A stretch of DNA of 18,525 bases from a virus: UHGV virus genome UHGV-0171332. One strand, given 5' to 3'. This document shows positions 1 through 17,150 of this stretch, in pieces. Under the pieces are notes generated by a model. That model was not told the DNA's origin. It searched no databases and saw nothing but the letters and a program-made list of their open reading frames with translations. Position 1 is the first letter of the stretch. Each line of letters begins with the position of its first letter. A program made the position numbers and the translations under genes.

Positions 1-116
1 TTTATCAATCATTTTAAGAAAAATTTTTATTTTTTATTTCCAGGCAGGATGGTAAATAATCAAAAATGTGGAAAGGACAGAGAGAACAATGTTTTTAATA
101 TAGGAAGATTCTTAAA
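1..116 (+). promoter_or_regulatory. AT-rich upstream region of lom, probable promoter region
   Basis: Seen in sequence: strongly AT-rich leader with T-runs directly upstream of the lom start. No -35/-10 boxes were mapped, so the exact promoter is not assigned. Confidence 0.3.
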
Positions 117-854
117 ATGAAAAGTATCACAAAATTTCTTGTGTGCGCAACTCTGGGCTTAGGTGGATTAACTGCACAGGCACATGCTGCATCTGGTGAT
201 AGTACCGTATCCCTTGGATTCGCTCACCTTCAGCTATCCGGGCTGAATAATTTTGTTAAGGATTTAAGTCTTCATAACCTTGATACCTTTAACAATTTTG
301 TGAATGAAAACTATTTCAATTCACCTGGAGAATATGACGATGCGTTTGTCCGGGGCCATGATGGTAAAGAGAAAAGTCCCTTGGGAATGAACATTAAGTA
401 TCGTTATGAGATTACGGATGAGATCGGTGTTATAACCTCTTTTGCATGGGCTCGATCCATGACTAATGCACAGGCATTCATTGATGTTAAGCCTTCCGAT
501 CCATCACGAGAGGTAAAAAAACCGGCAGCTTCAGCGAGAACTGATATCAGGGCTAATTACTGGAGTCTACTATCCGGTCCTTCGTGGCGGTTTAATGAAT
601 ACCTCAGTGTGTATTCAATGGCAGGTGTTGCGGTTGCAAAAGTAACTTATGATTTGAAAGTTAACGACAATCTTAATGGTGGTGTAGGTAGTTTTTCTGA
701 AAGTAACAGCACCAAAAAAACGTCTATTGCATGGTCTGTCGGCGCGCAATTTAACTTCAATGAAAGTGTTACTATGGACGTCACTTATGAAAGCTCAGGC
801 TCTGGCGACTGGAAAACTGATGGTTTATTTGCAGGCATTGGCCTGAAATTCTGA
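117..854 (+). CDS. lom: Lom/Ail/PagC/Rck-family 8-strand outer-membrane beta-barrel protein (245 aa)
   Basis: N-terminal signal peptide ending AQAHA. Family-typical motifs STVSLGF, GMNIKYRYEITDEIGVITSF and C-terminal SGSGDWKTDGLFAGIGLKF with terminal Phe closely match my recollection of lambda Lom (recalled, not searched). It is about 40 aa longer than lambda Lom. Confidence 0.9.
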   Translation: MKSITKFLVCATLGLGGLTAQAHAASGDSTVSLGFAHLQLSGLNNFVKDLSLHNLDTFNNFVNENYFNSPGEYDDAFVRGHDGKEKSPLGMNIKYRYEITDEIGVITSFAWARSMTNAQAFIDVKPSDPSREVKKPAASARTDIRANYWSLLSGPSWRFNEYLSVYSMAGVAVAKVTYDLKVNDNLNGGVGSFSESNSTKKTSIAWSVGAQFNFNESVTMDVTYESSGSGDWKTDGLFAGIGLKF

Positions 855-876
855 GTAATACCCGACAACATGTCAT

Positions 877-902
877 AACCCGCTGTGATGGCGGGTTTTT
901 TG
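877..902 (+). terminator. Rho-independent terminator of lom
   Basis: Inverted repeat AACCCGC / GCGGGTT with a 7-nt loop, followed by a T5 run and TGTTG, 23 nt after the lom stop codon. Confidence 0.6.
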
Positions 903-1086
903 TTGCCCGTGCAGGGCAAAAATCGTAGATTATGCGCGGGTGTCTTTCGGCTGATGGCTGGAAGGTGAACCTGAAGGCCTGATGTGGAAAGGCCCCGAGT
1001 CAAACATTTTGTTTAACCCGAGGCCCTAACCATCATACCTTAAGCAAGTAGAAGGTTAGCGCCTCTCCACTCAGGAGGCAAGCGCT

Positions 1087-1227
1087 ATGTCGCAAAAATC
1101 GCTCATCACCGTCACAATTTGTATGACGGTAATCTTCACCATCTGGATGTTACACGGCTCGTTGTGTGAGTTCCGGCTGAATTTGTGGGGAGCGGAGTTT
1201 GCGGCGTTCTTACAGTGTAAGCAGTAG
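1087..1227 (+). CDS. Hok/Gef-family type I toxin-like small membrane protein (46 aa), not in the supplied ORF track
   Basis: ATG at 1087 preceded by AGGAGG (1073-1078). Translation is MSQKSLITVTICMTVIFTIWMLHGSLCEFRLNLWGAEFAAFLQCKQ: an N-terminal hydrophobic helix followed by the SLCE[FIV]R and E[FV]AAF motifs recalled from Hok, Gef/HokC and RelF/HokD. The SD lies inside a predicted stem (1058-1086). Confidence 0.6.
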   Translation: MSQKSLITVTICMTVIFTIWMLHGSLCEFRLNLWGAEFAAFLQCKQ

Positions 1228-1236
1228 GAAAACCGC

Positions 1237-1258
1237 GACGGGGACGAAAGTCCCCGTC
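1237..1258 (+). other. GC-rich stem-loop with GAAA tetraloop, 3' of the hok-like ORF (RNA structural element, no U-tract)
   Basis: Perfect 9-bp inverted repeat GACGGGGAC / GTCCCCGTC around a GAAA loop, 10 nt after the stop codon. It is not followed by a T-run, so it looks more like a stabilising or processing hairpin than a canonical intrinsic terminator. Confidence 0.4.
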
Positions 1259-1307
1259 AACTGGTTGCTGAGGTTCAGCCGATATGGCACCCGTTTCTGG
1301 TGAGAGA

Positions 1308-1685
1308 ATGGACGACAAAATTCTCCGGTATATGCAGCGTGTTGTGAGAAATTCCCGCAACCCTGAATTTATGAATGAAGTTAAAGACGCCTGCCTTAAA
1401 AAGCAGGCGTTTTGTTTTGAGGCACCTGATGGCTTTCTGGTGCTGCGTTCTGTGCTCAGTGCTGATGGTATCCCTTATGTTTTGGTGTTGCTGGGCGTGT
1501 GTACGGGGAGTAACAGCGTTGAGCGTTATCTGCCGGAGGTGAAGACATTAACCCGTCTGGCTGGCGGACGCTGGGCTGAATTTCATACGGCAAGACGGGG
1601 ATTTATCCGGCTGGGAAAACGTCTGGGCTTTGAGCGAATGCCGGATGATGAGGATGGCTTCATGGTGTTCAGGATAGCGGTCTGA
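1308..1685 (+). CDS. Hypothetical protein (125 aa; alternative start at 1284 gives 133 aa)
   Basis: Intact ORF. The ATG at 1308 has a purine-rich GGTGAGAGA stretch just upstream; the ATG at 1284 has GAGG further upstream. No motif recognised. It is bracketed by the 1237-1258 hairpin and the terminator at 1737-1760. Confidence 0.5.
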   Translation: MDDKILRYMQRVVRNSRNPEFMNEVKDACLKKQAFCFEAPDGFLVLRSVLSADGIPYVLVLLGVCTGSNSVERYLPEVKTLTRLAGGRWAEFHTARRGFIRLGKRLGFERMPDDEDGFMVFRIAV

Positions 1686-1736
1686 CTGCCACTGTATTCA
1701 TTATCGTGTGTAAACCAATTGCAATTCACATTCTGA

Positions 1737-1760
1737 CCCTGCCCCGGCAGGGTTTTTTGT
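1737..1760 (+). terminator. Rho-independent terminator
   Basis: CCCTGC / GCAGGG stem with a CCCG loop followed by TTTTTTGTT, about 50 nt after the stop of the 1308-1685 ORF and just before the 1777 start. Confidence 0.6.
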
Positions 1761-1776
1761 TATCCAGGGGGCCATA

Positions 1777-2433
1777 ATGGGCGGAAAAAAAGGCGGTGGT
1801 GATACCAAAGTAAAACCAACAGCAGCGCAAATAGCACAGGAAGAAGTGGCCTGGAAAGGGTGGCAGGATTATCAAAAAATCCTCCGCCCGGCTGAAGATA
1901 ACTTCATGGAAAAGGTCGATGACCTGAACAGTGAGCAGCAGTACGACAATATTGCTGGCACCACAAATCTGGGGTATCAGAAACAGTTTGGCGAAGCACG
2001 GAAGGAGCTGGCGGGTAATCTTGCTCAGTCCGGTGTTGACCCGTCCAGTGGTCGCTTTAACGCGGTAATGAATGCGAACCAGAGTGATCAGGTAACCGGG
2101 CAGATTGACACAACCACACGGGGGCAGGTATCGCAGGCAGATAAGTATGTTGCCGGGCTACAGGATGTTGCTGCTCTCGGTTCTGGTCAAAAGGCGGATG
2201 CGTTACAGAGTTTTAACTCGCTGGCAGACAGCAGTCTGGCAAAAGCTAAATCGGACGCACAGGCTGCGTTTACGAAACAGCAGGGGCGAGCCTCTCTTGT
2301 TGGCGCTGGTTTGGGTGCGGTAGGTGCATATGCGATGTATAAGGCTGGCGGTAGCGGAGGAAGTGGCGGTGCTAAAACACCTGGCACCGGCGCTAATGCC
2401 ATTCAGCATCAGGCTCAGAACTGGAGACTGTGA
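1777..2433 (+). CDS. Hypothetical protein (218 aa); Lys/Gly-rich N-terminus, Gln/Ala-rich middle, Gly/Ala hydrophobic segment plus Gly/Ser tail at the C-terminus
   Basis: Intact ORF, first gene of a tightly spaced co-oriented block, preceded by GGGGG. The segment ASLVGAGLGAVGAYAMY is a small-residue (glycine-zipper-like) hydrophobic stretch. No catalytic motif recognised. Confidence 0.6.
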   Translation: MGGKKGGGDTKVKPTAAQIAQEEVAWKGWQDYQKILRPAEDNFMEKVDDLNSEQQYDNIAGTTNLGYQKQFGEARKELAGNLAQSGVDPSSGRFNAVMNANQSDQVTGQIDTTTRGQVSQADKYVAGLQDVAALGSGQKADALQSFNSLADSSLAKAKSDAQAAFTKQQGRASLVGAGLGAVGAYAMYKAGGSGGSGGAKTPGTGANAIQHQAQNWRL

Positions 2434-2435
2434 TT

Positions 2436-2882
2436 ATGGAGTACGGTAAATACGAAACACTTGCGAGATACGGTTATACCGGAGCTGCCCGTCCACAGGG
2501 TGACTGGCAGACGTCAGCAGCGCTGACACGCCAACAATACGACGACTGGCGAACCAGATATTTGCCCCGCGTGGCAAGGCTGGCTGACCTTGGCGAGAAC
2601 AACAGCCTGATGAATGCACAGCTTGCCCGGGTGGGCGGCCTTGCCACTTCCAGTCTCCGTACAGCGCAGATGGCGCAGGATAACCAGATGGCGAGATACG
2701 GGGTAAGCCGCCCGGATAATCCCAACAGTAACACACTGGGTTTGCGTAATGCTCTGGCAATTGCTGGCGCGAAAAATGGTATCCGTGAAGCAGAGCAGGA
2801 TCGCCAGATGAACATACTGACGGGGGCTTCTGCACCTGCAAGACAACAACTGAGTGTTGGCGGAAAACTGGTGTCAGCGTAA
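2436..2882 (+). CDS. Hypothetical protein (148 aa; the ORF track starts it at GTG 2430, overlapping the upstream stop)
   Basis: ATG at 2436 with GGAGA 8-9 nt upstream; GTG at 2430 is the alternative. The stop of the upstream gene lies within 5 nt, suggesting translational coupling. Gln/Arg/Ala-rich, no recognised motif. Confidence 0.55.
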   Translation: MEYGKYETLARYGYTGAARPQGDWQTSAALTRQQYDDWRTRYLPRVARLADLGENNSLMNAQLARVGGLATSSLRTAQMAQDNQMARYGVSRPDNPNSNTLGLRNALAIAGAKNGIREAEQDRQMNILTGASAPARQQLSVGGKLVSA

Positions 2883-2891
2883 GGGGGCAAT

Positions 2892-3143
2892 ATGGGATAC
2901 GGTTTACTGGATATTGCGAATCAGTCGCGGCGTGAGGCATTACAGGGAATAAGTGATGCCGACAGACGACGTGAAGAAATTGAGGCCGCGAACAAACAGA
3001 TGGCGGCGCAACAGAAAGCGCAGAACAAACAGAATATCGGCACGGGAATTGGTACGGGTGCAGCTATGGGCGCTGCTGTTGGTGGTCTCCCCGGTGCGGC
3101 TATTGGTGCTGTCATAGGTGGTATTGCTGGTTCTTTGTTTTAA
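2892..3143 (+). CDS. Small protein (83 aa) with charged N-terminal half and C-terminal glycine-zipper transmembrane segment
   Basis: SD AAGGGGG 5 nt upstream of the ATG. The C-terminus GIGTGAAMGAAVGGLPGAAIGAVIGGIAGSLF is a repeated GxxxG/A small-residue hydrophobic segment typical of membrane-inserting helices. Confidence 0.6.
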   Translation: MGYGLLDIANQSRREALQGISDADRRREEIEAANKQMAAQQKAQNKQNIGTGIGTGAAMGAAVGGLPGAAIGAVIGGIAGSLF

Positions 3144-3153
3144 GGAGTGGTGA

Positions 3154-4419
3154 ATGAGCGGATTTGCACAGGGTTTACTTGCCGGATTCAGCACGGTTGA
3201 CCAGGCAATGACCCGTCGTAAGGAACTTGGTTTGCGAGAAGCACAGCTTGCTCAACAACAGAAAAATAACGAGCGCGATTTTGAATTTGCACAGTCGCAG
3301 TTTGAACATAATAAAGACGTTGATCAGCGGAACTTTGATTACAGAGCCAAAGTCGACGACCGTAATTATGCACTGCAGGAAAGGGAGTTTAACGCCAACC
3401 AGAATTACCGGAATGCGTCGCTGGGTATGGAGCAGCAGCGACTCCGGATGCAGAAATACAACCAGCGACGGCTTGAGTATAACGATATGCTGGCGCGCGA
3501 TCAGCCTGTGATGGCGGCGCTTGGAAAGGCTGTGGATGCTGGCGATCGGGATGCAGCAATGCGTCTTTACGGCCAGTTGTCAGAGGGTAATCCGCTGAGG
3601 CTGATGGCGAATGATGGCTATGTAGCGAAAGCGGGTCAGGCCGTGAACAACCTGCAAAAAATCTTTGATGACAAGCCAGACAGGGCTATCGCTTCACTTA
3701 ATACGCCGGAGAATCTTGATGTCCTTTCCGGGGTGTTTGGCCCGGAACTGCAACAGCGTATTGGCATGCCCGATTCAACCGGGAAAAAGACGATAAAAGA
3801 GGCCAGGATTGGCAGTATAGTACCGGCACAGCAGGAAGGGTACATACTTATCGGCCTTGATCTCACATACAGTGATGGCTCTACAGCACATAAACCCGTT
3901 ACGGAATACGGCAGTGCACATCCTGATGATCAAACCGTGCTGGCGGTGCCTGTTGATAAGGCTGTTGAGCTTGTCAGGGAACGCAGTAAATTCGCGGAAA
4001 TTTCGAAAAATTTCGGCTATTTCACGCCGAAGCAGCAGGGACTTTCTGCGGATCAACTTCAGAAAGGAGCCAGCCAGGTAGCGATAAAGGTTGCACAGGA
4101 CGGCGGTGATGCGCAGGGAGCAGTGACGCAATATTATGCTTCGATGGGACTGCCGCAGTATCAGCAGCAAATTCAGCAGCAAAAAATTCAACAAGGGATT
4201 ACCAGTTGGGCGGGTGATGATCCGGATAAGCAGGCATTTGCCAGAGAAGTGGCCTCCCGTCAGCCAGAAATGCTGGAGCCTCAGAATCAGAAATTGCTGG
4301 AACACGGGTATGCGAATTTTCTCCGTATTCAAAAGGCCAGGGAGGAACAGGCCAGGGATGATAGCGCGGCCTCTGCATCTGAGTTTATCCGTGGTCTGAA
4401 ACAGAATTACGCGCAGTAA
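3154..4419 (+). CDS. Hypothetical protein (421 aa), Gln/Asn/Arg-rich, probably coiled-coil rich
   Basis: SD AAGGAG upstream and the start lies 10 nt after the previous stop. The N-terminus has a GLLAGF small hydrophobic patch followed by long charged Q/R/E-rich stretches. No catalytic motif recognised. Confidence 0.6.
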   Translation: MSGFAQGLLAGFSTVDQAMTRRKELGLREAQLAQQQKNNERDFEFAQSQFEHNKDVDQRNFDYRAKVDDRNYALQEREFNANQNYRNASLGMEQQRLRMQKYNQRRLEYNDMLARDQPVMAALGKAVDAGDRDAAMRLYGQLSEGNPLRLMANDGYVAKAGQAVNNLQKIFDDKPDRAIASLNTPENLDVLSGVFGPELQQRIGMPDSTGKKTIKEARIGSIVPAQQEGYILIGLDLTYSDGSTAHKPVTEYGSAHPDDQTVLAVPVDKAVELVRERSKFAEISKNFGYFTPKQQGLSADQLQKGASQVAIKVAQDGGDAQGAVTQYYASMGLPQYQQQIQQQKIQQGITSWAGDDPDKQAFAREVASRQPEMLEPQNQKLLEHGYANFLRIQKAREEQARDDSAASASEFIRGLKQNYAQ

Positions 4420-4450
4420 TTCACCATTCCCGTTAATACTATTTCCTGAT

Positions 4451-4477
4451 ACCCGGTCATTGTGCCGGGTTTTTTTA
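4451..4477 (+). terminator. Terminator-like hairpin immediately upstream of the giant ORF RBS (possible attenuator)
   Basis: ACCCGG / CCGGGT stem with an 8-nt loop followed by T7, ending about 10 nt before the ATG at 4488. The GGAG Shine-Dalgarno sits right after the T-run. Confidence 0.45.
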
Positions 4478-4487
4478 TGGAGTCTGT

Positions 4488-7400
4488 ATGGCTTATTCCG
4501 ATGAACAGCGCCCTGAAGCGCAATTTGGCAACCAGAGCCGCAACAGCCTGAACATTCAGCAGCCGGGAGAGACTGACAGCTATGATGTGTTTTTCTCCGA
4601 TCCCAATCGCTGGAAGGACAACAGCACGTCGTTCAGCCTGGGCGATGTATTGCCAACTATGGGGAAAGGTGTCGCCCAGTCCGTCCGGGGGACAGGGGAA
4701 ATGGCCCGTGGACTCGGTGATGCGATGATTCAGAGCCCGGTAAAAACAGGGGTACGTATTTTAAATGAGTTCAGCCGTATGGGGCTGCCGGGAGTCGCAA
4801 CTGTTCAGGATATTTTTGTCGGTGGCAGCAAGGGGGCGGATGAGGTCATCGACACTCTGCCTGATGGAAAAAATGCGGTTACTGATACTGTCGGTAAAGG
4901 TCTGAAGGTCACAGGCAAGGCCGTCAGTGGCGGCGCTAAAGCCTCGGATGAATGGCTGACTGGCAAGATGTCGCCGGGGGCGCAGCGGGCGCTGAATACA
5001 CCGATGACTGAAGGATATGATGATTCAGCGGTCTGGGTAGCGAAAGGGGTTAACCTGATTGGTGCGCTTGTACCGGATATGGTTGCAGGCGGTGTGACTA
5101 AAAAGCTGGGTGATGTCACTCTGCGAAAAGTGCTGACCGCCGGGCTGGAGAAAAAATACATCGCGGCAGGGATGCAGCCGGAAAGAGCCACAGCACTGGC
5201 AGCCGAAGCTGTCGATAAAAAAATGCCGGATTTTTTCCAGGCAGGCCTGATCACCCATTCCACTGTCAGTGCGCAAGGGCGGAGTGCAATGGCAGCGGCA
5301 GATGCTGTTCTTAACGCGGATTATTCTGAGCTGGCGAAGTCACCGAAATTTCAGCAGACCTTTTTGTCAATTGATGCAGATCCGCAGCACGCGCAGCTTA
5401 CTGACCGCCAGAAAATGGACCTGGCAAAAGAGCGTGTTGCCGATGAGGTGCGTGCGCAGCTGGCAACCGATCCTGAATTGCTGGCTGTGAATGCCATGGC
5501 GGCAAAACTGGGCGATGCTCAGTTGCTTAATCTGGCGATGCGGGGCACGGCGAAGACCGTTAAAAGCGGCATTGTCAGAAATGCCACGGAACAGGGGACG
5601 ATTAATGCGGCGCAGGGTGGCTATTCACGCTATCAGGAAAACACGGCATTGCGTGAGACCGCCGGAATGGATGTGTCACCGTGGGAGGGCGTGGCTGACG
5701 CAACGATCGAAGGTGCAGCCCTTGGTGCTGCAATGGGGGCACCATTCGGTGCGGCTGCCGGATATCGTGGAAAACGTCAGGCGGCAGATGAAGCAGCCAT
5801 GCGTGAGGCTGAAAGCGTTCCTCAGGACGAATCGGCTCCGCAACCCGAACCGGTTGATCCGGTGGCACAGCATCGTGAATCTATGCAGGGGATGAATCGC
5901 GAGCAGCTTCTGGAACAGTATGCTGATGCGGATATGGCACATGAGGGAGACACGTCTGCCGTTCATCGCCGGGAAGCCGCCAGCCAGCTGTTGAATGAAC
6001 TGGATGAACAGGCGAAGCGACAGGCGGTGATGGATGAGCTGAAGGCGAAGCCGCGCCCTGAACTGCTTGAGGAATACCGAAAACTCAGCCAGAAGGAAGG
6101 GCGTACTGATACTGAAGAGCAGCAGTTACAGGCAATACGTGATGTGCTTCGCCCTCAGCGGGAGGCCAGACCGGAGGCACAGCCACAGCCGGAAAATGCG
6201 GATGATGGCGACGGGAGTATTTACCCGACGGTGCGGTTCCGCGATCCGGATGAAGTTCGTATTGAAATTAACGAGAGTGGTGCGTCCAGACCAGCAGAAC
6301 GCATTGAAAAGGTGCGTCCGGACAACCGTTATTTCACGGATGAAAAAAGTGCTCTGGGGAGCGACGTTTTCCGCAATGCCAGCGCCACCGGCCTGAAACC
6401 GTCCGTAGTGAAGAAAGGCGAGAATCAGTATGCCGTTGAAATGGATAATCCTGCGTTCTCTGAAGATGTGGCAACGGAGACCATTAACACTCTGGCTGAC
6501 GGAGAGCGTATTACTGATGCTGATCCGATGGAACAGCCCGCGTTCATGCGTGACCCGCGATTCCGTGGTTTTACGGGGGATGATACAGAAGTGCAGGCCC
6601 GTCTTGCTCGTGGCAACGCGCCGACGGCGGAAGAACTGGTGCGTTCCCAGATGGCTGAAGGTGATGCCGGTCCGACAGCACAGGAGTTAACTGAGCGTCC
6701 ACGCCTTCCCGCTCCCGGCGATATTCATCCCGGACAGGGATATCCGTTACCAGGAGAAGTAGCGCGTACGCCGGATGAAAATCAGGCCGGACGTGGTGGT
6801 CGTTTTACCACAACCGGTGAGGTGAAGGGCCAGAGTTTCCAGAAAGGACGTGCGCAGGCACCGGAAAATGCCGCTGGTCGCCAGGGGGAAATACTGGAGG
6901 GCGAAACAGTTCGTCGTGGTCTGCCGTCACCGGATGAGCAGAACGCCACAGCACCAGTGCGTGAAGGTCTTCCTGCACCTGAAAGTCAGCGTGGGGTTGA
7001 TATGCCACAGCCTGAATCACTCCCTCGTATGGTTCGTGACTCCCTTCCGGAACTGGCACAGCAGGCAGAAGCACGCAGACAGACCGGGGATAATCGCCAG
7101 ACCATAACCGATGTTCCGGATACTGAGGTGCCGGTGCCGGTAGATAAACCGAGCACTCACCAGCAGGCGCGTGGTGCGAAAATTGAAGACTTTGGCGAGG
7201 AGATTAAGGGCGCGGCAAAACACCGTTATGCGCAGCTTGCTGAAGCTATGGGTAAAACGCTGGAGGATGGGGAGTACGCGACACAACCACTGAGCAAACT
7301 GTTTCCAAAGCCGGATTATGCCCGTCTGGAAAAAGAAGGTGTGGATAGTGACACGCTGGCAATGATGGCGTTGTATCGCAGTGAAATTCCCACCAGAACA

Positions 7401-10400
7401 AGCCGTAACATGCAGAAATGGATCAGCATTGTTAAAAGCGGTCGCGAAGCTACTGCCGGTATGCTGGAGGGGAAAATTCCGGCAGCGAAACTGGCTGATA
7501 TGATGGACAGTAAGCCGGGGTTACGGAGCATGTCGGATACCTGGAAACTGCTCCGTACGCTTTCTGCATTGCAGATTGATAAAGCATCCGGCTATCGTGT
7601 CAGGTCCGGTGTTTATTCGTTTGTCGGGGGAAAACGTTACGATCCGCCGCAAATGATGTATTCGCTTCGTGATAGCAAGGGGCGCGACCTCTTTTTCTCG
7701 GAAAGCCGGGATGAGTTACTGAAAAAGGCGAAAGCATATTTCGATGAACAAGGCTCCAGAGAAAGGGAAACGCCAGCAACCTCTGCTGATGACAGAATAA
7801 CCTTTGACGTGTACCGGCATAAGGCCAGTGGCGACATTTTTATCGGTTATGGCAAAAACAGGCAGAAACTGAAGGGCGGTTTTGAGTCTGCCCGTGATGC
7901 ACATGATTATGTGCGCACACATCGTGATGAGCTGGTTAATCAGGTGAAGGCGCTGCGTGAAGTCTCGCGTGAGGAGCAGCGTAACGCCACCAACCGCGAT
8001 CGTACCGGACCAGAACGCCGCAAGGGGGATGTTTCGCCGGAGCAGTTCAGTGATGCGTTTGGTTTTCGTGGTGTGCAGTTTGGTAATTATGTGGAAAGTC
8101 CGCGTCGTCAGGCTGATTTGAACCGGGCTTATGACTCGCTGCATGACCTGGCTGACGTGCTGAACGTGCCGACAAAAGCGCTTTCTCTGAACGGTCGTCT
8201 TGGGCTTGCTTTTGGTGCCCGTGGTAAGGGTAAGGCGGCGGCACACTATGAGCCGGGTGAGGTGGCAATCAACCTGACAAAAGGTAACGGACCGGGGGCG
8301 CTGGCCCACGAATGGTTCCATTCACTGGATAATTATTTTGGTCGTTATGATGTTTCCACTGACGGGAAGATCACGTCAGGTGGCGACTATATGACGGAAG
8401 CACAGCGTGCCGGGCGCGTATTTAAAGACGGCAGGTATGTTGATGCGGAATATCCGGTACGTCAGGAGGTTTACGACGCGTTTAAAGGCGTGATGAAAGC
8501 CATTAACAGCAGTGACATGTTGCGTCGTTCTGAACGCCTGGATGGCGTTCGTTCAAAACCGTACTGGTCAACGGATGTTGAAATGGCGGCGCGAGCCTTT
8601 GAGCGTTATGTTCAGGATAAAGCGCGTATGGCTGGCGTGGAGAATGATTATCTGGTCAATATCCGTAAGGCGGATGACCATGGACAGCCGGACACCTACG
8701 CTTATCCGACGAATGCAGAACTGGATGGCGGTATTCGTGAGGCATTCGATCACTTGTTCCGAACACTGAAAACCCGTGAGACGGACAAGGGAGTTGCGTT
8801 TTATTCCCGTAAGGGCGTGACCCGCACACCTGAAGGCAATCTGATTTCGGATGTTAACCGCAGTGCGGAAGCCAAAGGCAGTCCGGTCCCGCAGGTTGAA
8901 GCTGTTGCCCGTGGCGTGATTAGTGGCATTAAGGACAGTGACCTGAAGGTCCGCGTGGTGAAGTCACAGAAAGAGGCTGAAGCACTGGCGGGTGAATCAT
9001 TCGACGGTTACGGCAAGGTGCACGCGTTCTATCGTCCGGATAAACGTGAAATTGTCCTGGTGGCGGATAACATCCCTGACGGGCGGACCGTTCGCGAGAA
9101 GTTACGTCACGAGATTATTCACCATGCAATGGAGCATGTAGTCACGCCAGCGGAATATCAGACGATTATTAAGACCGTGCTGAAAACCCGTGACAGTGAT
9201 AACGCCACCATCCGTGAAGCCTGGCGTAAGGTTGATGCGTCTTATGGTAAGGAATCACCGGAAGTGCAGGCGGGTGAATTTCTGGCGCATATGGCAGAGA
9301 AGCAGCCGATTAAATTCGTGGCGGCATGGGAGCGTGTTGTTGCCCTGGTCAAAGGGGTACTGCGTCGTACGGGGTTACTGAAGCCGACGGAACTGAACGA
9401 TATCAGACTTGTTCGCGAAACTATTCGCACGTTAGGCCAGCGTGTGCGGGAAGGTTACACGCCGCGTGAGGATGGCGCGGACGCATCGTCTCAGTACTCC
9501 CGTAGCGGTAAGCCTGATCCGTTCAAAGTGCCGGAAGGTGAGGGCGAGCGTTATCGTGATGACCTTGCCAGAATGATGAAGTCTCTGCGCACCACAGATT
9601 TAACGGTAAACATCGGGCGTACGCCGCCGGTATTGCGTCACCTTGGCGCACCAGATTTGCCGCTGGTTATCTCCCGCGACACTGTGCGTAAGGCCACCAA
9701 TGGAGTGAAACATGTGGTGCCGATGGATGTTATCGAGAGACTACCGGAACTGATGCACGATCCGGATGCAATTTACCGTTCCGCGACAGAAAGAAATGCG
9801 GTTGTGATGCTGCTTGATGCCATGGATAAAAATGGTGATCCTGTAGTGTCAGCGGTACACATGAAGGCTGTCCGGTCGCGCCTGGAAATCAACAAGGTAG
9901 CTTCGGTTTACGGTACGGAAGGAGGAATGAATAAGGCAAATAGTCTGGATAAAGCCGGATTAACGCTTTACCGGAAGAAAAAATTAAGCCGCGATAACCT
10001 TCTGCACAGAGGGCTTCAATTGCCCAAAGGGGAACATTCTTATCGCGGCTCTGTAGATAAAATACTCTATCCTGAAGATATTCGCAAGGGGCCGTATTAC
10101 TCCCGCACCAGCAGTCTGACGCCGGAAGAGACAATTGCATCCCGTTTTGTTCGCCAGATGCAGGATAAATTCCAGGTGCTGAAGGCGGTGCAGGAGAATA
10201 TCCGTAAAACTGGCGGAAAAATAGATGACAGCAATAACGCCTATATGGCTGAAGAACTCTTCCACGGGAAGGCGGAAAACGACCTGAACGTAATGAAGGA
10301 GCGCTACGTTCAGCCGCTGGCCAAATTGCTGGCGGACTACAAAATTGCGCAGGCCGATCTGGATGAGTACCTCTACGCCCGTCACGCGCCGGAACGTAAC

Positions 10401-12842
10401 GCGCATATTGCGAAAATCAACCCGAAAATGCCGGACGGCGGTTCGGGGATGACCAACGCGGAAGCGGCGGAAATCATGCAGCGTGTGCGTAACAGCGGCA
10501 AACAGGCACAGTATGACCGTCTGGCAGGGATTATTGACGATATGCTGGCCCGTCGCCGTGAGATTATCCGTGAGGCAGGACTGGAAGAGAGCGGCGTGGT
10601 GGATGCCTGGCAGAAAGCCTACCGTTACTACGTCCCCCTGAAAGGGCAGGATGTTGACGGTGTGGTGTCACTGCCACGTACAGGCAAGGGATTCACCATC
10701 GGCGGGCGTGAAAGTAAGCAGGCCATGGGGCGTGCATCCCGCGCACAGTCTCCTTCCACTCAGGCGATACAGGATTTGAGTGAATCGCTGATCCGCAATC
10801 GCAAAAATGAAGTGGGTAACGCCTTCCTGAAACTGGTACAGGATAATCCCGACAAGGATTACTGGCAGGTATTCACTGATGACAGACCGGATACAATGCG
10901 TGTGATTGCAGAGCGCAAGGACCAGGAAACTGGTGAAACCATTCGCGAAGTTGTCGAGCGCCCTGTGCCGATGGCAATGATGGCGGATCGCTACTTCACC
11001 ACCAAAAAGGACGGCAAAACTTACTACATTAAACTTCATGATCCGCGCCTGATGCGTGCGATGAAGAACATGGGGCCGGAAACCAGTAACGCCGTAATCC
11101 GTACGCTGGGGAAAGTTAACCGCTTCCTGGCAACGGTGAACACGTCGTATAACCCGGAATTTCTGGTCAGTAACTTCATCCGTGACGTGCAGACTGCGGT
11201 GATGAACCTGAAGGCTGAGCAGGGAAGAAGCGACGGCAAACTGAAAGGGCTGGATAACTTATCCGCGCTGGCTGTGGTGAAAGACAGCCGTTCCGCCATG
11301 TCAGCCGTATACGCAAGTCTGCGGGGTAAAACCCTCACGGGCAAAGGCGCACAGTGGCAGAAAGTGTGGAAAGAGTTTGTTGAGGACGGAGGTAAAACCG
11401 GCTGGTTTAACATGGGTGACCTTGAGGGCCAGCAGAAGGAAATGGATCGCCTTGTGTCGCTGGCGAAGGGCGGATGGAAAGGCCAGAGTATCGGTGCATG
11501 GCATTCGTTCCTGAACCTGGTCGAGGATGCCAACGGCGCGGTTGAAAACGCTCTGCGTCTTTCTGCCTATAAACACGCCCGTGATGCCGGTTTGTCACGC
11601 CAGCAGGCGGCGTCTCTTGCCAAAAACATGACGGTGAACTTTAACCGTCGTGGTGAGCAGGGGATGCTGATGAACTCGCTGTACATGTTTGCCAACGCCA
11701 GCATTCAGGGGACCGCAAACCTGGTGAGAACGCTCGGACATCTTAATGGCGACGGGCCGTTACTGGAGCGCCTTCGCTGGAAGAATCTCAATGTACCGCA
11801 GAAAATCGTGCTTGCAGCTGTGGGAGCGGGTTATCTGCTTGGCTCGCTTAACCGCAGTGTGGCGGGTGAGGATGATGACGGGGTTAACTGGTACGACAAA
11901 GTACCGTCTCATGTGAAAGAGCGTAACCTCGTCATCATGAAATCGATGTTCGGGGGCAAGGCCGGTGAGTACTGGAGTATTCCTCTGCCTTACGGGTACA
12001 ACGTGTTCTTCCTGCTTGGTCATACAGCTGAAGGTGTGGCAGCGGGCGACCTGACTGCTTCACGTGCTGCCGGTAATGTTGTCGGCGGTATCCTGGGAGC
12101 ATTCAGCCCGATCGGCAGCGAGACGTCGGAAACGTTGTCGGGGGCATTGCTGAAAAACGCAGCACCGACCATTCTGCGTCCGTTTGCGAACCTTGCCATG
12201 AATGAAAACTTCATGGGGGCGCAGATTTACCAGGAGAACATGCCGTTTGGTACACCAAAACCTGACAGCCAGCTGGGAAGACGTTCAACGCCAGAAGCGT
12301 ACAAGGCGTTTGCATCCTGGCTGAATGCGTTCTCAGGTGGCAGCCAGTATCGTCCCGGCGCGGTGGATATCACACCGGAATCGCTGAAATTCTGGATTGA
12401 CTATATCTCCGGAGGGACAGGGCGCTTCATTTCCAAAACCACGGATGCGGCGGTGAAATCGCTGAATGGTATTGATATACCGGAACAGCAGGTGCCCTTC
12501 CTGGGGAAAATTTCGGGTGAGGTGATGCCGTATGCAGACCAGCAGAAGATGTACGACCGGATGACAGAGGTTGCGCAGTATCACGCAGAGCTGAAGAGTC
12601 TGACCGGTGCAGAAAGAACGGCGTTCATTGACGAGAACAACGGAAAATTGTTGATGAACGGGCTTATGCAGGATACCCGGAAGAGACTGAAGGATTTGCG
12701 CAAACAGCGCGATGCCATTTATGCCGACAGTTCTCTCAGTCTGGCGCAGCAGGCGGCGATGGTGAAATCGGTAGAGCGGGATATGAAGGTTGCCGTGGAT
12801 CGGTTTAACCGCGAGTACAACAAAAAAGTGGGAGTGGATTAA
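4488..12842 (+). CDS. Giant multi-domain protein (2784 aa) with two HExxH (zincin-like) motifs, a Pro/Glu/Gln-rich low-complexity linker and hydrophobic Gly/Ala segments; function unknown
   Basis: Uninterrupted 8355-nt ORF with GGAG SD. HEWFH at aa 1274-1278 (nt 8307-8321) and HEIIH at aa 1541-1545 (nt 9108-9122). Gly/Ala hydrophobic stretch EGAALGAAMGAPFGAAAGY at aa 408-426 (nt 5709-5765). C-terminal hydrophobic segments near aa 2438-2454 and 2529-2545. No Walker A or methyltransferase motif seen. Coding status is high confidence; functional assignment is low. Confidence 0.85.
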   Translation: MAYSDEQRPEAQFGNQSRNSLNIQQPGETDSYDVFFSDPNRWKDNSTSFSLGDVLPTMGKGVAQSVRGTGEMARGLGDAMIQSPVKTGVRILNEFSRMGLPGVATVQDIFVGGSKGADEVIDTLPDGKNAVTDTVGKGLKVTGKAVSGGAKASDEWLTGKMSPGAQRALNTPMTEGYDDSAVWVAKGVNLIGALVPDMVAGGVTKKLGDVTLRKVLTAGLEKKYIAAGMQPERATALAAEAVDKKMPDFFQAGLITHSTVSAQGRSAMAAADAVLNADYSELAKSPKFQQTFLSIDADPQHAQLTDRQKMDLAKERVADEVRAQLATDPELLAVNAMAAKLGDAQLLNLAMRGTAKTVKSGIVRNATEQGTINAAQGGYSRYQENTALRETAGMDVSPWEGVADATIEGAALGAAMGAPFGAAAGYRGKRQAADEAAMREAESVPQDESAPQPEPVDPVAQHRESMQGMNREQLLEQYADADMAHEGDTSAVHRREAASQLLNELDEQAKRQAVMDELKAKPRPELLEEYRKLSQKEGRTDTEEQQLQAIRDVLRPQREARPEAQPQPENADDGDGSIYPTVRFRDPDEVRIEINESGASRPAERIEKVRPDNRYFTDEKSALGSDVFRNASATGLKPSVVKKGENQYAVEMDNPAFSEDVATETINTLADGERITDADPMEQPAFMRDPRFRGFTGDDTEVQARLARGNAPTAEELVRSQMAEGDAGPTAQELTERPRLPAPGDIHPGQGYPLPGEVARTPDENQAGRGGRFTTTGEVKGQSFQKGRAQAPENAAGRQGEILEGETVRRGLPSPDEQNATAPVREGLPAPESQRGVDMPQPESLPRMVRDSLPELAQQAEARRQTGDNRQTITDVPDTEVPVPVDKPSTHQQARGAKIEDFGEEIKGAAKHRYAQLAEAMGKTLEDGEYATQPLSKLFPKPDYARLEKEGVDSDTLAMMALYRSEIPTRTSRNMQKWISIVKSGREATAGMLEGKIPAAKLADMMDSKPGLRSMSDTWKLLRTLSALQIDKASGYRVRSGVYSFVGGKRYDPPQMMYSLRDSKGRDLFFSESRDELLKKAKAYFDEQGSRERETPATSADDRITFDVYRHKASGDIFIGYGKNRQKLKGGFESARDAHDYVRTHRDELVNQVKALREVSREEQRNATNRDRTGPERRKGDVSPEQFSDAFGFRGVQFGNYVESPRRQADLNRAYDSLHDLADVLNVPTKALSLNGRLGLAFGARGKGKAAAHYEPGEVAINLTKGNGPGALAHEWFHSLDNYFGRYDVSTDGKITSGGDYMTEAQRAGRVFKDGRYVDAEYPVRQEVYDAFKGVMKAINSSDMLRRSERLDGVRSKPYWSTDVEMAARAFERYVQDKARMAGVENDYLVNIRKADDHGQPDTYAYPTNAELDGGIREAFDHLFRTLKTRETDKGVAFYSRKGVTRTPEGNLISDVNRSAEAKGSPVPQVEAVARGVISGIKDSDLKVRVVKSQKEAEALAGESFDGYGKVHAFYRPDKREIVLVADNIPDGRTVREKLRHEIIHHAMEHVVTPAEYQTIIKTVLKTRDSDNATIREAWRKVDASYGKESPEVQAGEFLAHMAEKQPIKFVAAWERVVALVKGVLRRTGLLKPTELNDIRLVRETIRTLGQRVREGYTPREDGADASSQYSRSGKPDPFKVPEGEGERYRDDLARMMKSLRTTDLTVNIGRTPPVLRHLGAPDLPLVISRDTVRKATNGVKHVVPMDVIERLPELMHDPDAIYRSATERNAVVMLLDAMDKNGDPVVSAVHMKAVRSRLEINKVASVYGTEGGMNKANSLDKAGLTLYRKKKLSRDNLLHRGLQLPKGEHSYRGSVDKILYPEDIRKGPYYSRTSSLTPEETIASRFVRQMQDKFQVLKAVQENIRKTGGKIDDSNNAYMAEELFHGKAENDLNVMKERYVQPLAKLLADYKIAQADLDEYLYARHAPERNAHIAKINPKMPDGGSGMTNAEAAEIMQRVRNSGKQAQYDRLAGIIDDMLARRREIIREAGLEESGVVDAWQKAYRYYVPLKGQDVDGVVSLPRTGKGFTIGGRESKQAMGRASRAQSPSTQAIQDLSESLIRNRKNEVGNAFLKLVQDNPDKDYWQVFTDDRPDTMRVIAERKDQETGETIREVVERPVPMAMMADRYFTTKKDGKTYYIKLHDPRLMRAMKNMGPETSNAVIRTLGKVNRFLATVNTSYNPEFLVSNFIRDVQTAVMNLKAEQGRSDGKLKGLDNLSALAVVKDSRSAMSAVYASLRGKTLTGKGAQWQKVWKEFVEDGGKTGWFNMGDLEGQQKEMDRLVSLAKGGWKGQSIGAWHSFLNLVEDANGAVENALRLSAYKHARDAGLSRQQAASLAKNMTVNFNRRGEQGMLMNSLYMFANASIQGTANLVRTLGHLNGDGPLLERLRWKNLNVPQKIVLAAVGAGYLLGSLNRSVAGEDDDGVNWYDKVPSHVKERNLVIMKSMFGGKAGEYWSIPLPYGYNVFFLLGHTAEGVAAGDLTASRAAGNVVGGILGAFSPIGSETSETLSGALLKNAAPTILRPFANLAMNENFMGAQIYQENMPFGTPKPDSQLGRRSTPEAYKAFASWLNAFSGGSQYRPGAVDITPESLKFWIDYISGGTGRFISKTTDAAVKSLNGIDIPEQQVPFLGKISGEVMPYADQQKMYDRMTEVAQYHAELKSLTGAERTAFIDENNGKLLMNGLMQDTRKRLKDLRKQRDAIYADSSLSLAQQAAMVKSVERDMKVAVDRFNREYNKKVGVD

Positions 12843-12965
12843 CAGAAATGGCCCCGTACGGAAGTGCGGGGCTGATTAAGAAATAAACACACATTAACCT
12901 GTAATAACCGGAGCTATTAACATATAGTCAGAAAGAGTGTTTCATGTGAGACAGAGAGCCGATTT

Positions 12966-13184
12966 ATGTTTAATGAAGAAAAAGTTGCGCAAATGGCAGC
13001 GTATTTGCTGAAAAAGCATGGCGGATCTATGCGTTTCATTAAGCTGATGAAGCTGATGAAGCTGATGAAGCTGATGAAGCTGATGTATCTCTCTGACCGC
13101 AAAGCAATGGAGTCTTTAACCGGGAAGGGGAGAGGTTTGAATGCTCCCCCACAATTCCCCGGCATCAAATCTCCATGCAGGTGA
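12966..13184 (+). pseudogene. Truncated Panacea/SocA-like (DUF4065-type) phage-associated gene fragment carrying an in-frame repeat expansion
   Basis: The N-terminus MFNEEKVAQMAAYLLKKHGG...KLMKLMYLSDR resembles the start of Panacea-domain proteins as I recall them (KLQKLLY-type helix). The ORF stops after 72 codons where it meets the 3' end of the convergent minus-strand gene block; full-length family members are roughly twice that length. Confidence 0.4.
13041..13085 (+). repeat. Perfect 9-bp tandem repeat (AAGCTGATG) x5, in frame (KLM x5)
   Basis: Five head-to-tail copies read directly in the sequence. The minus-strand reading gives the spurious ISF repeat ORF. Confidence 0.95.
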
Positions 13185-13270
13185 ACTATTTTACCCCCAG
13201 CGGCAAATCGCAAAAACAATCAGTGCGATCAAAATGGCAGCCACTACAATTGCAAATGCTTCAGGCTAGG

Positions 13271-14197
13271 TCATTGGCGTACCTCCTTCGGCGGTTCTGG
13301 TAGCGGCATCCAGTGGGTTACTTCTTTGAGATGCAGGTCTTCGCCATCACCGTCATCCCAAGTGGGATTGCCATCATTAAACCAGTCGCCATATACGCCG
13401 ACCTGAGTGTTGGGGATGCTTGGTGGGTAGTTGTTTTTAAAGTCAGCTGCTAACACATAGTATTGTCGCTCTCCCATTTCTGGCATTCGATCACTACAGC
13501 TTATCCAACCATCCGGAGTTACCGGAACTGGCGGAACGGCTGTTTGCTCTCGAACGTCATTAGTCGCTATCGGTTCTGCTGCCAACTGACTGGCATATTT
13601 GTTAATGGTAACGATAAGCTCTTGCTCAGCCTCATCCAGACAATCACCGATACCTCGCCTGTCACCGTCAAAATCATCGAAATCGGCACGAATCTTGGCA
13701 ACCTTCAGGATTGCGGACAACACCTCACTAGGAATTACCGGATAGTTGGTTGACGTTTCCGCGATTTCCCGAAAATTATTGGTTGACGAATTCTTGTTTT
13801 CCCGAAAGTTTCCGGACTGAAGCATAGCGGCACGGCAGGCGTTCCAGCCTCTCACCTCTGCAATAGCGGCAACAGCATCAACCGCGTACATGCTAAGAGG
13901 ATTAGGCATTGGTTTTTCTTCCGGTACTACTGGTGCTGGAGGGGCGGCGTAAATGCCCTCTATCACTAAATGTTTGCGCTCAAAATCATCTGGCTCTCGA
14001 TGATATACGTAACTCCAATCACCAAGGTTATCATTGCGCCTGCAACGGAAACCTATCGGCTCGGCTTCCAGCGCTGCCAGTGCAATTCGTGCCAGTTCTT
14101 CCGCTTCTTCTGCTGGCAGTACAACGTTGCTACCCGGTCCGTATGTTTCGCGCCACTGCTTGATTGTCAGCAGTCGCCCTTTGGTAATAGTGATCAT
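13271..14197 (-). CDS. DUF551-domain protein, Ead/Ea22-region type (308 aa)
   Basis: C-terminal region DGWISCSDRMPE...YYVLAADF...THWMPLPEPP matches the DUF551 signature as I recall it. Its stop lies at the convergence junction and its start overlaps the upstream gene stop by 4 nt (ATGA), indicating an operon. Confidence 0.7.
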   Translation of the reverse strand: MITITKGRLLTIKQWRETYGPGSNVVLPAEEAEELARIALAALEAEPIGFRCRRNDNLGDWSYVYHREPDDFERKHLVIEGIYAAPPAPVVPEEKPMPNPLSMYAVDAVAAIAEVRGWNACRAAMLQSGNFRENKNSSTNNFREIAETSTNYPVIPSEVLSAILKVAKIRADFDDFDGDRRGIGDCLDEAEQELIVTINKYASQLAAEPIATNDVREQTAVPPVPVTPDGWISCSDRMPEMGERQYYVLAADFKNNYPPSIPNTQVGVYGDWFNDGNPTWDDGDGEDLHLKEVTHWMPLPEPPKEVRQ

Positions 14198-14709
14198 GCC
14201 GCGTTTCCTTCTTTCTTATTAACAATCACACCGTCATATATTTCATTAAGGTGCCCTCTCAACTCCATGCGCCTTAATGCAGATAACATGTAATCGCATT
14301 CAACCTGCTTATTCCCAGTAAATGGCTTATCGTCAGGATTACCCCAACAGCAATTACCCCTGGGCCATCCATGTACTTTCCGTACTCTTCCGTTAACAAC
14401 GTGAAGTAATCCCCAGCCGGGAGGTAAATCCTCAACTGAAATAATTTCCGGCTCACTAATAAAGAATCGCCAGTCGCCCATGCCAAGTGAGGGATTTTTA
14501 CGGAAACGCTTTTTTCTATCTGCCAACAAGTCAGCACGAGAACACTTCGCCTCTATCAGGCATGATGCTGAATTTCTGAATCCCATAGCATCTGGCTGTT
14601 CTCCGGTACTGGTTACAGCTATAAAGCGGTCATGAAAACAAACCTTGAACCCGTTGCGCTTAAGGAACTTGTACGCAATCTGACAGAGTTCGCGGTGTGT
14701 TAATGCCAT
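14194..14709 (-). CDS. Hypothetical protein with PD-(D/E)xK nuclease-like motif (171 aa)
   Basis: Motif EQPD...(12 aa)...LIEAK: a PD followed by ExK at spacing typical of the restriction-endonuclease-like fold. The C-terminal half is Cys/Trp-rich. Fold assignment is an inference from motif only. Confidence 0.55.
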   Translation of the reverse strand: MALTHRELCQIAYKFLKRNGFKVCFHDRFIAVTSTGEQPDAMGFRNSASCLIEAKCSRADLLADRKKRFRKNPSLGMGDWRFFISEPEIISVEDLPPGWGLLHVVNGRVRKVHGWPRGNCCWGNPDDKPFTGNKQVECDYMLSALRRMELRGHLNEIYDGVIVNKKEGNAA

Positions 14710-14710
14710 A

Positions 14711-15412
14711 TCACTCTCCTTTGATGCGAATGCCAGCGACGCGTAATGCGTGTTCTAGGTCAATCAGGTAAAGCCAACTGCCATTTTCTTTAGGTATCAT
14801 GACGTGGCGCTCATCATCATTTATCGGATGTCCATATCGAAGGCCGTAGCGAGTCGGCAAATGAACTTCCCGCGTTTCCAGCTCTTTAACGCGTTCCTCC
14901 AGTTCGTAGACCCTGCATTGTTCTCTATCATCAATCAGATATAACCCAAGACATTCGCTTTCTACCCAACCGCCAAAATCATGATCGTAACGCTCACATG
15001 AAAACTCACCGTCACCGTCCTTTGTTGGAATGGTGTAACTATCTAATGGGCCACCATATGTCGGCACATTTCCCAATGTTGGATGCTCAATCCACATGAA
15101 AAATGTACGTCCGGTTATTGGGCAAATATCTGGCCGCCATTGGTTACGAACAGCCTTGGTTTCGGATAATTCTTCAGCGTGTTGTTTTACTTCCTCAAGC
15201 TCAACACGCAGCTTCCCAACCGTAAGAGCAATTTCCTCGTTCTCCTGGTCGCGGCGTTTGATGTATTGCTGGTTTCTTTCCCGCTCATCCAGCAGTTCCA
15301 GCACAATCGATGGTGTTACCAATTCATGGAAAAGGTCTGCGTCAAATCCCCAGTCGTCATGCATTGCCTGCTCTGCCGCTTCACGCAGTGCCTGAGAGTT
15401 AATTTCGCTCAC
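14711..15412 (-). CDS. Ead/Ea22-like family protein (233 aa)
   Basis: N-terminus MSEINSQALREAAEQAMHDDWGFDADLFHELVTPSIVLELLDERE followed by a charged coiled-coil-like stretch, as recalled for Ea22-like proteins of E. coli lambdoid prophages. The 4-nt overlap (ATGA) with the upstream TraR-like gene fits lambda early-left organisation. Confidence 0.7.
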   Translation of the reverse strand: MSEINSQALREAAEQAMHDDWGFDADLFHELVTPSIVLELLDERERNQQYIKRRDQENEEIALTVGKLRVELEEVKQHAEELSETKAVRNQWRPDICPITGRTFFMWIEHPTLGNVPTYGGPLDSYTIPTKDGDGEFSCERYDHDFGGWVESECLGLYLIDDREQCRVYELEERVKELETREVHLPTRYGLRYGHPINDDERHVMIPKENGSWLYLIDLEHALRVAGIRIKGE

Positions 15413-15630
15413 TTCGAACCTCTCTGTTTACTGATAAGCTCCAGATCTTCCTGGCAACTTGCACAAGTCCGACAACCCTGAACGACCAGGCGTCTTCGTT
15501 CATCTATCGGATCGCCACACTCACAACAATGAGTGGCAGATATAGCCTGGTGGTTCAGGCGGCGCATTTTTATTGCTGTGTTGCGCTGTAATTCTTCAAT
15601 TTCTGATGCTGAATCAATGATGTCTGCCAT
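15409..15630 (-). CDS. TraR/DksA-family C4 zinc-finger protein (73 aa), phage TraR-like (lambda orf73-type)
   Basis: CCECGDPIDERRRLVVQGCRTCASCQ contains the CxxC...CxxC zinc ribbon with the conserved acidic tip of the DksA/TraR family. The size matches phage and plasmid TraR proteins. Confidence 0.8.
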   Translation of the reverse strand: MADIIDSASEIEELQRNTAIKMRRLNHQAISATHCCECGDPIDERRRLVVQGCRTCASCQEDLELISKQRGSK

Positions 15631-15680
15631 CTTCCATTAATCCCTGAATTGTTGGTTAATACGCTTGAGGGTGAATGCGA

Positions 15681-15707
15681 ATAATAAAAAAGGAGCCTGT
15701 AGCTCCC
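15681..15707 (-). terminator. Intrinsic terminator on the minus strand inside the early-left-like cluster
   Basis: On the minus strand: GGAGC / GCTCC stem with a 5-nt loop followed by a T-rich tract (TTTTTTATTATT), between the stop of the 15729-15944 ORF and the TraR-like start. Confidence 0.45.
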
Positions 15708-15728
15708 TGATGATTTTGCTTTTCATGT

Positions 15729-15944
15729 TCATCGTTCCTTAAAGACGCCGTTTAACATGCCGATTGCCAGGCTTAAATGAGTCGGTGTGAATCCCATCAG
15801 CGTTACCGTTTCGCGGTGCTTCTTCAGTACGCTACGGCAAATGTCATCGACGTTTTTATCCGGAAACTGCTGTCTGGCTTTTTTGATTTCAGAATTAGCC
15901 TGACGGGCAATGCTGCGAAGGGCGTTTTCCTGCTGAGGTGTCAT
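15729..15944 (-). CDS. Hypothetical small protein (71 aa from internal ATG; the ORF track extends it to 16010, 93 aa)
   Basis: Intact ORF in the early-left-like cluster. Start is ambiguous: the ATG at 16010 has no SD and sits 10 nt after the upstream stop; the ATG at 15944 has a weak GGGA upstream. No motif recognised. Confidence 0.45.
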   Translation of the reverse strand: MTPQQENALRSIARQANSEIKKARQQFPDKNVDDICRSVLKKHRETVTLMGFTPTHLSLAIGMLNGVFKER

Positions 15945-16020
15945 TGAACAAGTCCCATGTCGGCAAGCATAAGCACACAGAATATGAAGCCCGCTGCCAG
16001 AAAAATGCATTCAGTGGTTG

Positions 16021-16212: not shown

Positions 16213-16321
16213 ACAGCCCCCCCATTTATTATTTATCTCCTCAGCCAGCCGCTGTGCTTTCAGGGGATTTCGGATTACAGAAAGGCCGGGAAATACCCAG
16301 CCTCGCTTTGTAACGGAGTAG

Positions 16322-16719: not shown

Positions 16720-16786
16720 TGAAACAGGTGAGTTGAGTTCAAACTGTAGTACAATTCTCTCCAGTTTGAACAGGAAAGAATATGCT

Positions 16787-17119: not shown

Positions 17120-17150
17120 AAATAATTTGTTTCTAAACGACTAAAATATG

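Follow-up and report, generated by a model that had tools for sequence, protein, structure and literature searches.

A conserved predicted terminator abuts the ribosome-binding site of the giant virion-protein gene in the late operon of Stx-type prophages

Results

Gene content and operon context

The window, that is, the whole stretch of 18,525 nt analysed here (UHGV virus genome UHGV-0171332), has matches in 186 phage records, nearly all of them Stx-converting or related short-tailed Escherichia/Shigella phages, and in 420 of the 5,426 complete E. coli genomes. It represents a prophage of the short-tailed Stx type (933W/Sp5/phi24B-like), namely the distal end of its late operon, with the genes in the following order: lom (117-854, identified by phrog_108) and its terminator, a hok-like gene, a gene encoding 133 aa, a terminator at 1735-1754, four small genes (1777-4419; 218, 150, 83 and 421 aa), the terminator-like hairpin region at 4451-4487, and a giant ORF of 2,784 aa on the plus strand (4488-12842). 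The last of the four small genes (421 aa; 3154-4419, plus strand; stop codon TAA at 4417-4419) encodes a homologue of the phi24B virion protein gp48 and matches phrog_601 with E = 2.7e-200. The giant gene, both the last and the largest of the late genes (8.4 kb), encodes a polyvalent virion protein (LPD5, LPD1, MuF_C, LPD38) homologous to phi24B gp47 and Sakai ECs_1242.

In Stx phages, late transcription starts at pR' and depends on antitermination by Q (PMC7547250). The window itself ends before Q; in the FORC_069 prophage, 99.7% identical to positions 1-13526 of the window, and in Sakai Sp5, the same strand carries a Q gene of 144 aa about 27 kb upstream, and both relatives have the layout of a Q-antiterminated lambdoid late operon. 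This Q protein matches phrog_79 and also the Q21 structures 6JNX and 6P18 (E = 1.3e-7; a partial match covering residues 8-86). A consensus scan yielded zero sense-strand promoter-like sites at positions 1-13749 of the window, hence none in the stretch from the hairpin to the start codon of the giant gene, and a local promoter for the giant gene was rejected as a candidate.

The match to Stx-type prophages does not extend into 13527-18525, which is a DLP12-like early-left region (DUF551, Ead/Ea22, TraR/DksA, ren, emrE, ybcK) where no integrase was found. The junction near 13.5 kb suggests a recombinant of two prophages, and none of the complete E. coli genomes matches the stretch over its full length. 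The prophage may thus be recombinant, its right end from about 13.5 kb being DLP12-like.

The hairpin, the U-tract and the Shine-Dalgarno sequence

The stop codon of the 421-aa gene is followed by a 31-nt 3' UTR spacer (4420-4450), and the hairpin (4451-4470, plus strand) starts 32 nt past the TAA. The arms ACCCGGT and GCCGGGT form a stem of 7 bp, consisting of five G-C pairs, one A-U pair and a loop-closing U.G pair, around the 6-nt loop CATTGT; folded by itself, the hairpin has an energy of -11.1 kcal/mol (z = -3.05). The stem is directly adjoined by a U-tract (4470-4478), made of T7 at 4470-4476 and then AT, in which the first T (4470) can pair with A4451, leaving the tail UUUUUUAU. Next come the Shine-Dalgarno (SD) sequence GGAG (4479-4482), the 5-nt spacer TCTGT and the start codon at 4488, 11 nt from the end of the T-run. 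The sequence-only reading had described a 6-bp GC stem and a T7 run ending about 10 nt before the ATG, with GGAG squeezed between them. This description holds for the T-run, its distance to the start codon and the placement of the SD, the stem being the one point to be amended, as it has five G-C pairs and one A-U pair (plus the U.G pair) rather than six G-C pairs. The observation of a terminator-like hairpin set against the ribosome-binding site (RBS) of the giant gene is thus confirmed.

The site carries the usual features of an intrinsic terminator: a G+C-rich stem (about 5-14 bp) with a short loop, a U-tract (about 6-8 nt) adjoining the stem and retained in all 13 sequence variants described below, and location on the sense strand past a stop codon. 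In the consensus terminator scan it was among the best terminator-like plus-strand sites of the window. A transcription attenuator or a riboswitch would be expected to look different, as no conserved alternative (antiterminator) pairing was found at the site, and zero Rfam families were matched in the whole window at the gathering threshold. We also considered sequestration of the SD, since in the minimum free energy fold UUCC at 4443-4446 pairs with GGAG. This candidate was rejected, as 4421-4500 does not fold significantly (z = -1.41) and the anti-SD is missing from Salmonella and from the E. coli group that has diverged most, so that the extra pairing is not conserved.

Non-random occurrence of terminators in the late operon

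A loose scan of the window produced 19 sites compared to 19.3 in shuffled sequences, that is, no enrichment, and stricter thresholds (four or more G-C pairs; six or more T in 8) were therefore applied to the 35.4-kb late operon of the FORC_069 prophage. The sense strand yielded 27 raw matches (13 distinct sites) against 0.78 raw matches in dinucleotide shuffles and 6 raw matches on the antisense strand. Ten of the 13 distinct sense-strand sites are intergenic (about 11 by another count), and at the rate seen in the shuffles about 0.0015 chance sites would be expected per given 68-nt spacer. In the window itself, the strict sense-strand matches are at 877, 1386, 1735 and 4451. Since the sense strand has far more strict motifs than shuffled sequences do, the 4451 hairpin is not a chance occurrence.

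In this relative, intergenic sense-strand terminators follow Q, Rz, the capsid gene (21511), the virion gene that comes next (21952), lom and the 133-aa gene; others are found in the lysis region, between the portal gene and the 335-aa and capsid genes (19110) and before the giant gene. The 4451 terminator is real but ordinary, being one of about a dozen in the late operon. Four of them (21511, 21952, 32425 and 35141) end at most 25 nt from the next start codon; hence, tight packing of a terminator and an RBS is a general trait of this compact operon and is not special to the giant gene.

Two other terminators of the window are the one after the lom moron (877-902, plus strand; hairpin at 877-897) and a sister site (GACCCTGCCCCGGCAGGGTT and a T-run; 1735-1760, plus strand) situated about 17 nt before the ATG at 1777 of the first small gene, the latter being kept in Salmonella relatives with a compensatory change from C-G to A-T. 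The match at 1386 is a strong, terminator-like bidirectional hairpin (1386-1411; GACGCCTGCCTTAAAAAGCAGGCGTT and TTGTTTTG; -15.2 kcal/mol) inside the 133-aa gene (ORF 1284-1685), almost unchanged in Salmonella relatives (2909-2934 in L053, 2883-2906 in L055). The spacer between lom and the next gene (855-1283) contains a hok/mok-like ORF at about 1088-1227 and a minus-strand hairpin at 1259-1236. Its equivalent in phi24B, the region between lom and vb_24B_43, is the reported source of the 20-nt RNA 24B_1 (PMC4426718).

The repeated packing of a hairpin against an RBS bears on one alternative, by which the hairpin would act after transcription, as a block to 3'-exonucleases or as a 5' protective structure after cleavage, and would, together with the U-tract, insulate and enhance the RBS via S1 binding, termination being incidental. 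The four closely packed sites share the same layout of hairpin, U-run and SD, two of these cassettes are kept in Salmonella relatives, and the stem ends at -18 from the start codon, presumably at the edge of the ribosome footprint; in addition, the equivalent junction of a Burkholderia phage has an SD-sequestering hairpin (see below). On the other hand, neither an exonuclease block nor an RBS insulator needs a U-tract abutting the stem, yet the tract is always retained; other such terminators, those after lom, the portal gene and Rz, are far from any RBS; and the extended fold pairing UUCC with the SD is neither conserved nor significant. We consider this explanation unlikely as the main function, although a post-transcriptional role could possibly coexist with the gating of transcription discussed below.

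Conservation and covariation of the stem

The comparison covered 48 IMG/VR loci, one RefSeq phage and four contigs of Salmonella prophages with a giant protein about 60% identical in its N-terminal part, and gave 13 distinct intergenic sequences. In these, the UTR 5' of the hairpin is divergent, while the stem, the abutting U-tract and TGGAGT...ATG are retained. The U-tract consists of 7-10 T in E. coli and is TTTTTTATTT in Salmonella, and TGGAGT, the SD region, is invariant in 13 of 13 variants. The stem occurs in five versions (ACCCGGT/GCCGGGT, GCCCGGC/GCCGGGT, GCCCGAC/GTCGGGC, ACCCGGT/ACCGGGT and GCCCGGC/ACCGGGT), three of them within E. coli, all with energies between -10.1 and -13.1 kcal/mol.

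In the alignment of the 13 distinct sequences from E. coli and Salmonella (A1), 97.8% of the cells are paired, and two-sided changes are seen in three of the seven pairs. At slid control positions, 26-46% of the cells were paired with zero compensatory changes, and the observed values were reached by 2 of 500 shuffles. As the covariation rests on few independent substitution events, it is supportive rather than overwhelming. Judging by its sequence features and their conservation, the hairpin is predicted to be a genuine, selectively maintained Rho-independent terminator.

A separate feature of the spacer, which is otherwise variable in the relatives, is TTAA(T) at 4434-4438, located 13-17 nt 5' of the hairpin and invariant in 13 of 13 variants including Salmonella (columns T16 T17 A18 A19 of A1). 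Two short contigs labelled Xanthomonas pisi DSM 18956 (L050 and L051; 376 and 663 bp) encode fragments 80-90% identical to the E. coli giant protein and most likely represent contamination of the Xanthomonas assembly.

The junction in distant phages

The order of the small-gene block and the giant gene is shared by E. coli, Salmonella and Vibrio phages, the Vibrio giant protein being about 30% identical at the N-terminus and about 41% at the C-terminus. In the Vibrio phages K248 and D53, a strict terminator (AGCCCGCCTAGTGCGGGTT and TTCTTTTG) is situated 12 nt past the stop codon of a 467-aa gene, and about 85 nt that include a promoter-like site separate it from the giant gene. In the Vibrio phage douglas 12A4 there is only a 9-nt gap, and the Ralstonia phage Eline has a small hairpin without a U-tract; these two cases rule out a universal terminator at the junction. 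In the Burkholderia phage BcepMigl, the junction has a hairpin of -48 kcal/mol (z = -7.75) with the SD in its 3' arm. Thus, the giant-gene junction is often, but not always, structured, and the kinds of structure differ. The BcepMigl spacer (80 nt; L061, 6698-6790) precedes a DarB-like giant gene of 4,658 aa, and its hairpin, whose 3' arm holds the SD GAGGGGAG, is in itself a candidate translational control element.

The K248 and D53 junction, where the hairpin and the promoter-like site together look like a true operon boundary, would fit the notion that the 4451 hairpin is a non-functional relic, either of an old operon boundary of the ancestral structural module or of a mosaic junction, that has been passively carried along. 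The same notion would fit the most diverged E. coli group, where nucleotide similarity begins near the upstream stop codon. However, a passively carried element would hardly be expected to show two-sided stem changes at a constant energy (-10 to -13 kcal/mol) or to keep its U-tract in both the E. coli and the Salmonella lineages, where the UTR beside it has diverged, and we regard a relic as very improbable.

The terminator at the RBS in E. coli and Salmonella, the terminator with a promoter-like site in Vibrio and the SD-sequestering hairpin in BcepMigl could also be taken together. By such a broader interpretation, the junction before the giant virion/ejection gene would be a conserved control point of a widespread podophage module, and the Stx cassette would still tune the ratio of the giant to the small proteins despite Q, either because some Q-loaded polymerase still terminates or at the level of mRNA processing, stability or translation. 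We find it distinctly unlikely.

The giant protein and its neighbours in virions

A 2026 preprint on phi24B reports the giant protein gp47 in virions, describes it as abundant and proposes that it is an ejection protein. We used the raw peptide-spectrum match (PSM) counts from its supplement, apparently obtained from a whole-virion digest; such counts are semi-quantitative and reflect incorporation rather than synthesis. The capsid protein has 1,674 PSM (about 4.1 per residue), followed by gp47 with 746 (0.27), gp48 (421 aa) with 179 (0.43), the portal protein with 101 (0.14), gp50 with 83 (about 0.5), gp51 with 82 (about 0.35) and the 86-aa ORF with 6 (about 0.07). The count for gp47 is therefore the second highest, its value per residue is above that of the portal protein, and the upstream proteins detected best, three in number, differ from it by no more than about 1.2-2.1-fold. 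The giant protein is not a rare virion component in phi24B. The premise of the sequence-only reading, that a very large minor component follows abundant small ones, is a poor fit here, as gp47 is abundant and, per residue, at most about two-fold below the three upstream proteins detected best.

The homologues of all four small genes (gp51, gp50, the 86-aa ORF and gp48) were detected in phi24B virions. The 83-aa Gly-zipper protein (2892-3143), annotated as 'bacteriocin', was dismissed as a contaminant in the phi24B preprint and may belong to the internal/ejection module.

For the giant gene of uninduced EHEC Sakai, Hfq CRAC data place ECs1242 17th of all coding sequences, with reads almost all antisense, e.g. 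26,613 versus 1,456 sense (PMC4104026, Table S1A), which implies an abundant Hfq-bound antisense RNA within the giant gene in lysogens. On the minus strand of the giant gene of the window (4488-12842) we observed a candidate promoter-like site at 6474-6445 and candidate terminator-like sites at 5240-5226, 7789-7773, 10436-10420 and 11649-11630. As for an Hfq-bound RNA derived from the 3' UTR at the hairpin, ECs1241 and the respective coordinate range do not appear in the CRAC data of Tree et al. 2014, in which Hfq peaks are under-recovered at terminators.

The virion counts bear directly on a further alternative, an attenuator that sets stoichiometry: a fixed fraction of polymerases, even Q-modified ones, would terminate at the hairpin, so that less mRNA would be made of the giant gene than of the four small genes. 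The motif is that of a good terminator, and the lower value of gp47 per residue (0.27 versus 0.43, about 0.5 and about 0.35 for the upstream proteins) agrees with a step-down; yet the giant protein is abundant in virions, and the counts are crude and measure incorporation, not synthesis. According to the phage L genome paper, intra-operon terminators may either give partial termination or stop spurious non-antiterminated transcription (PMC8022706). A terminator or other structured element is present at the equivalent junction of the distant Vibrio and Burkholderia phages, although the douglas 12A4 junction spans only 9 nt. Moreover, the same motif is found between the genes for the portal protein (12 copies per virion) and the capsid protein (hundreds of copies), where a step-down would be harmful. 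Complexes of the Q21 type constrict the RNA exit channel and block the formation of terminator hairpins, and the Q protein of the relative is related to Q21, which also argues against termination of modified polymerase. We consider an attenuator rather unlikely. Hence, of the two possibilities offered by the sequence-only reading, fixed attenuation is the weaker one and is weakly supported, while expression only under antitermination agrees with the position of Q upstream in the relatives, the lack of a local promoter-like site in the scan and the induction-linked expression of the 8-kb ORF in phi24B described below.

A proposed gate overridden by Q

The reading that we prefer, and to which we give about an even chance, is that the hairpin is a genuine intrinsic terminator which halts polymerase in its unmodified state but lets Q-loaded polymerase pass. 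It builds on what was observed: a motif that is non-random in its occurrence, conserved and covarying, its setting in the late operon, a scan that gave no local promoter-like match, and published expression linked to induction. From these we infer that unmodified polymerase terminates, that Q-loaded polymerase reads through, and why the element has been selected.

In such a scheme, polymerase lacking Q and originating from moron promoters (lom, hok), spurious starts or read-in during lysogeny would let the hairpin form, would be released at the U-tract and would never enter the 8.4-kb gene. Q-loaded polymerase coming from pR' would read through the 4451 terminator and roughly ten others, so that the giant gene would be expressed only in the lytic programme, at a transcript level roughly equal to that of its neighbours. 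In the mRNA, the hairpin would leave the U-rich stretch and GGAG single-stranded for independent initiation of translation.

In phi24B lysogens, the lom level is similar with or without induction, whereas the downstream 8-kb ORF (CM7) follows induction (PMC3342100). This contrast is what intervening terminators would produce. In a literature search, we found no usable gene-resolved RNA-seq coverage of induced Stx prophages. Against a gate at this particular position, no promoter-like site was found in the scan between the 1735-1754 terminator and the 4451 hairpin, and terminators of lom and hok are already present upstream. In addition, the terminator at the equivalent junction of K248 and D53 may point to a function that belongs to the module and not to control by Q.

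Discussion

Lambdoid phages are already known to have intra-operon terminators, of which the 4451 site is a new, well-conserved example. In the most widespread Stx-converting phages, the giant protein is abundant in the virion and 14% of the genome is occupied by its gene. The possible silence of this gene in lysogens and the control of its dosage bear on the cost of the prophage and on phage production. Term-seq and dRNA-seq data exist for Sakai (GSE143631; PMC7547250), a strain that carries the site, with the U-tract at about 1,296,008-1,296,012 on the plus strand of NC_002695.2. Being conserved and covarying, with no local promoter and with products that can be quantified in virions, the site is a clean test case for terminators in antiterminated late operons.

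Several known systems may be compared to it. Partial terminators and stabiliser hairpins that set operon stoichiometry include T7 Tphi after gene 10 and the malEFG REP hairpins. These, too, place a stem-loop inside a single transcription unit, separating upstream genes from the one that follows, but they act on a polymerase sensitive to the signal or on mRNA decay alone, whereas at 4451 the polymerase is expected to be terminator-resistant.

Morons, defined as cassettes of a promoter, a gene and a terminator, such as lom (Juhala et al. 2000, as cited in PMC4104026), likewise carry intrinsic terminators within the late operon, the lom terminator at 877-897 being of this kind. In contrast to a moron, the four genes before 4451 encode virion proteins and are syntenic in E. 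coli, Salmonella and Vibrio, that is, in all relatives examined, and no promoter-like site was found at 1755-4450.

The terminator tR', located after pR' in lambda and in Stx phages (the Q target unit and the source of the StxS/6S RNA; PMC7547250), also stops unmodified polymerase and lets Q-loaded polymerase pass, as is predicted for the 4451 site. The strengths are similar, a candidate hairpin just after Q in the relative having -10.7 kcal/mol. However, tR' is a promoter-proximal primary switch, whereas the 4451 site, about 27 kb downstream, would be at most a secondary barrier and has no known short RNA product.

Another close parallel is the terminator after the procapsid module of the P22-like phage L (PMC8022706), which is likewise canonical, on the sense strand and between late genes of an operon with a presumed single Q-dependent promoter, and for which the same two roles have been hypothesized. 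The 4451 site differs in that it belongs to another phage lineage (Sepvirinae, with an N4/GP4-like structural module), lies at another junction, before a giant gene for a polyvalent virion protein, is conserved with covariation and abuts the RBS.
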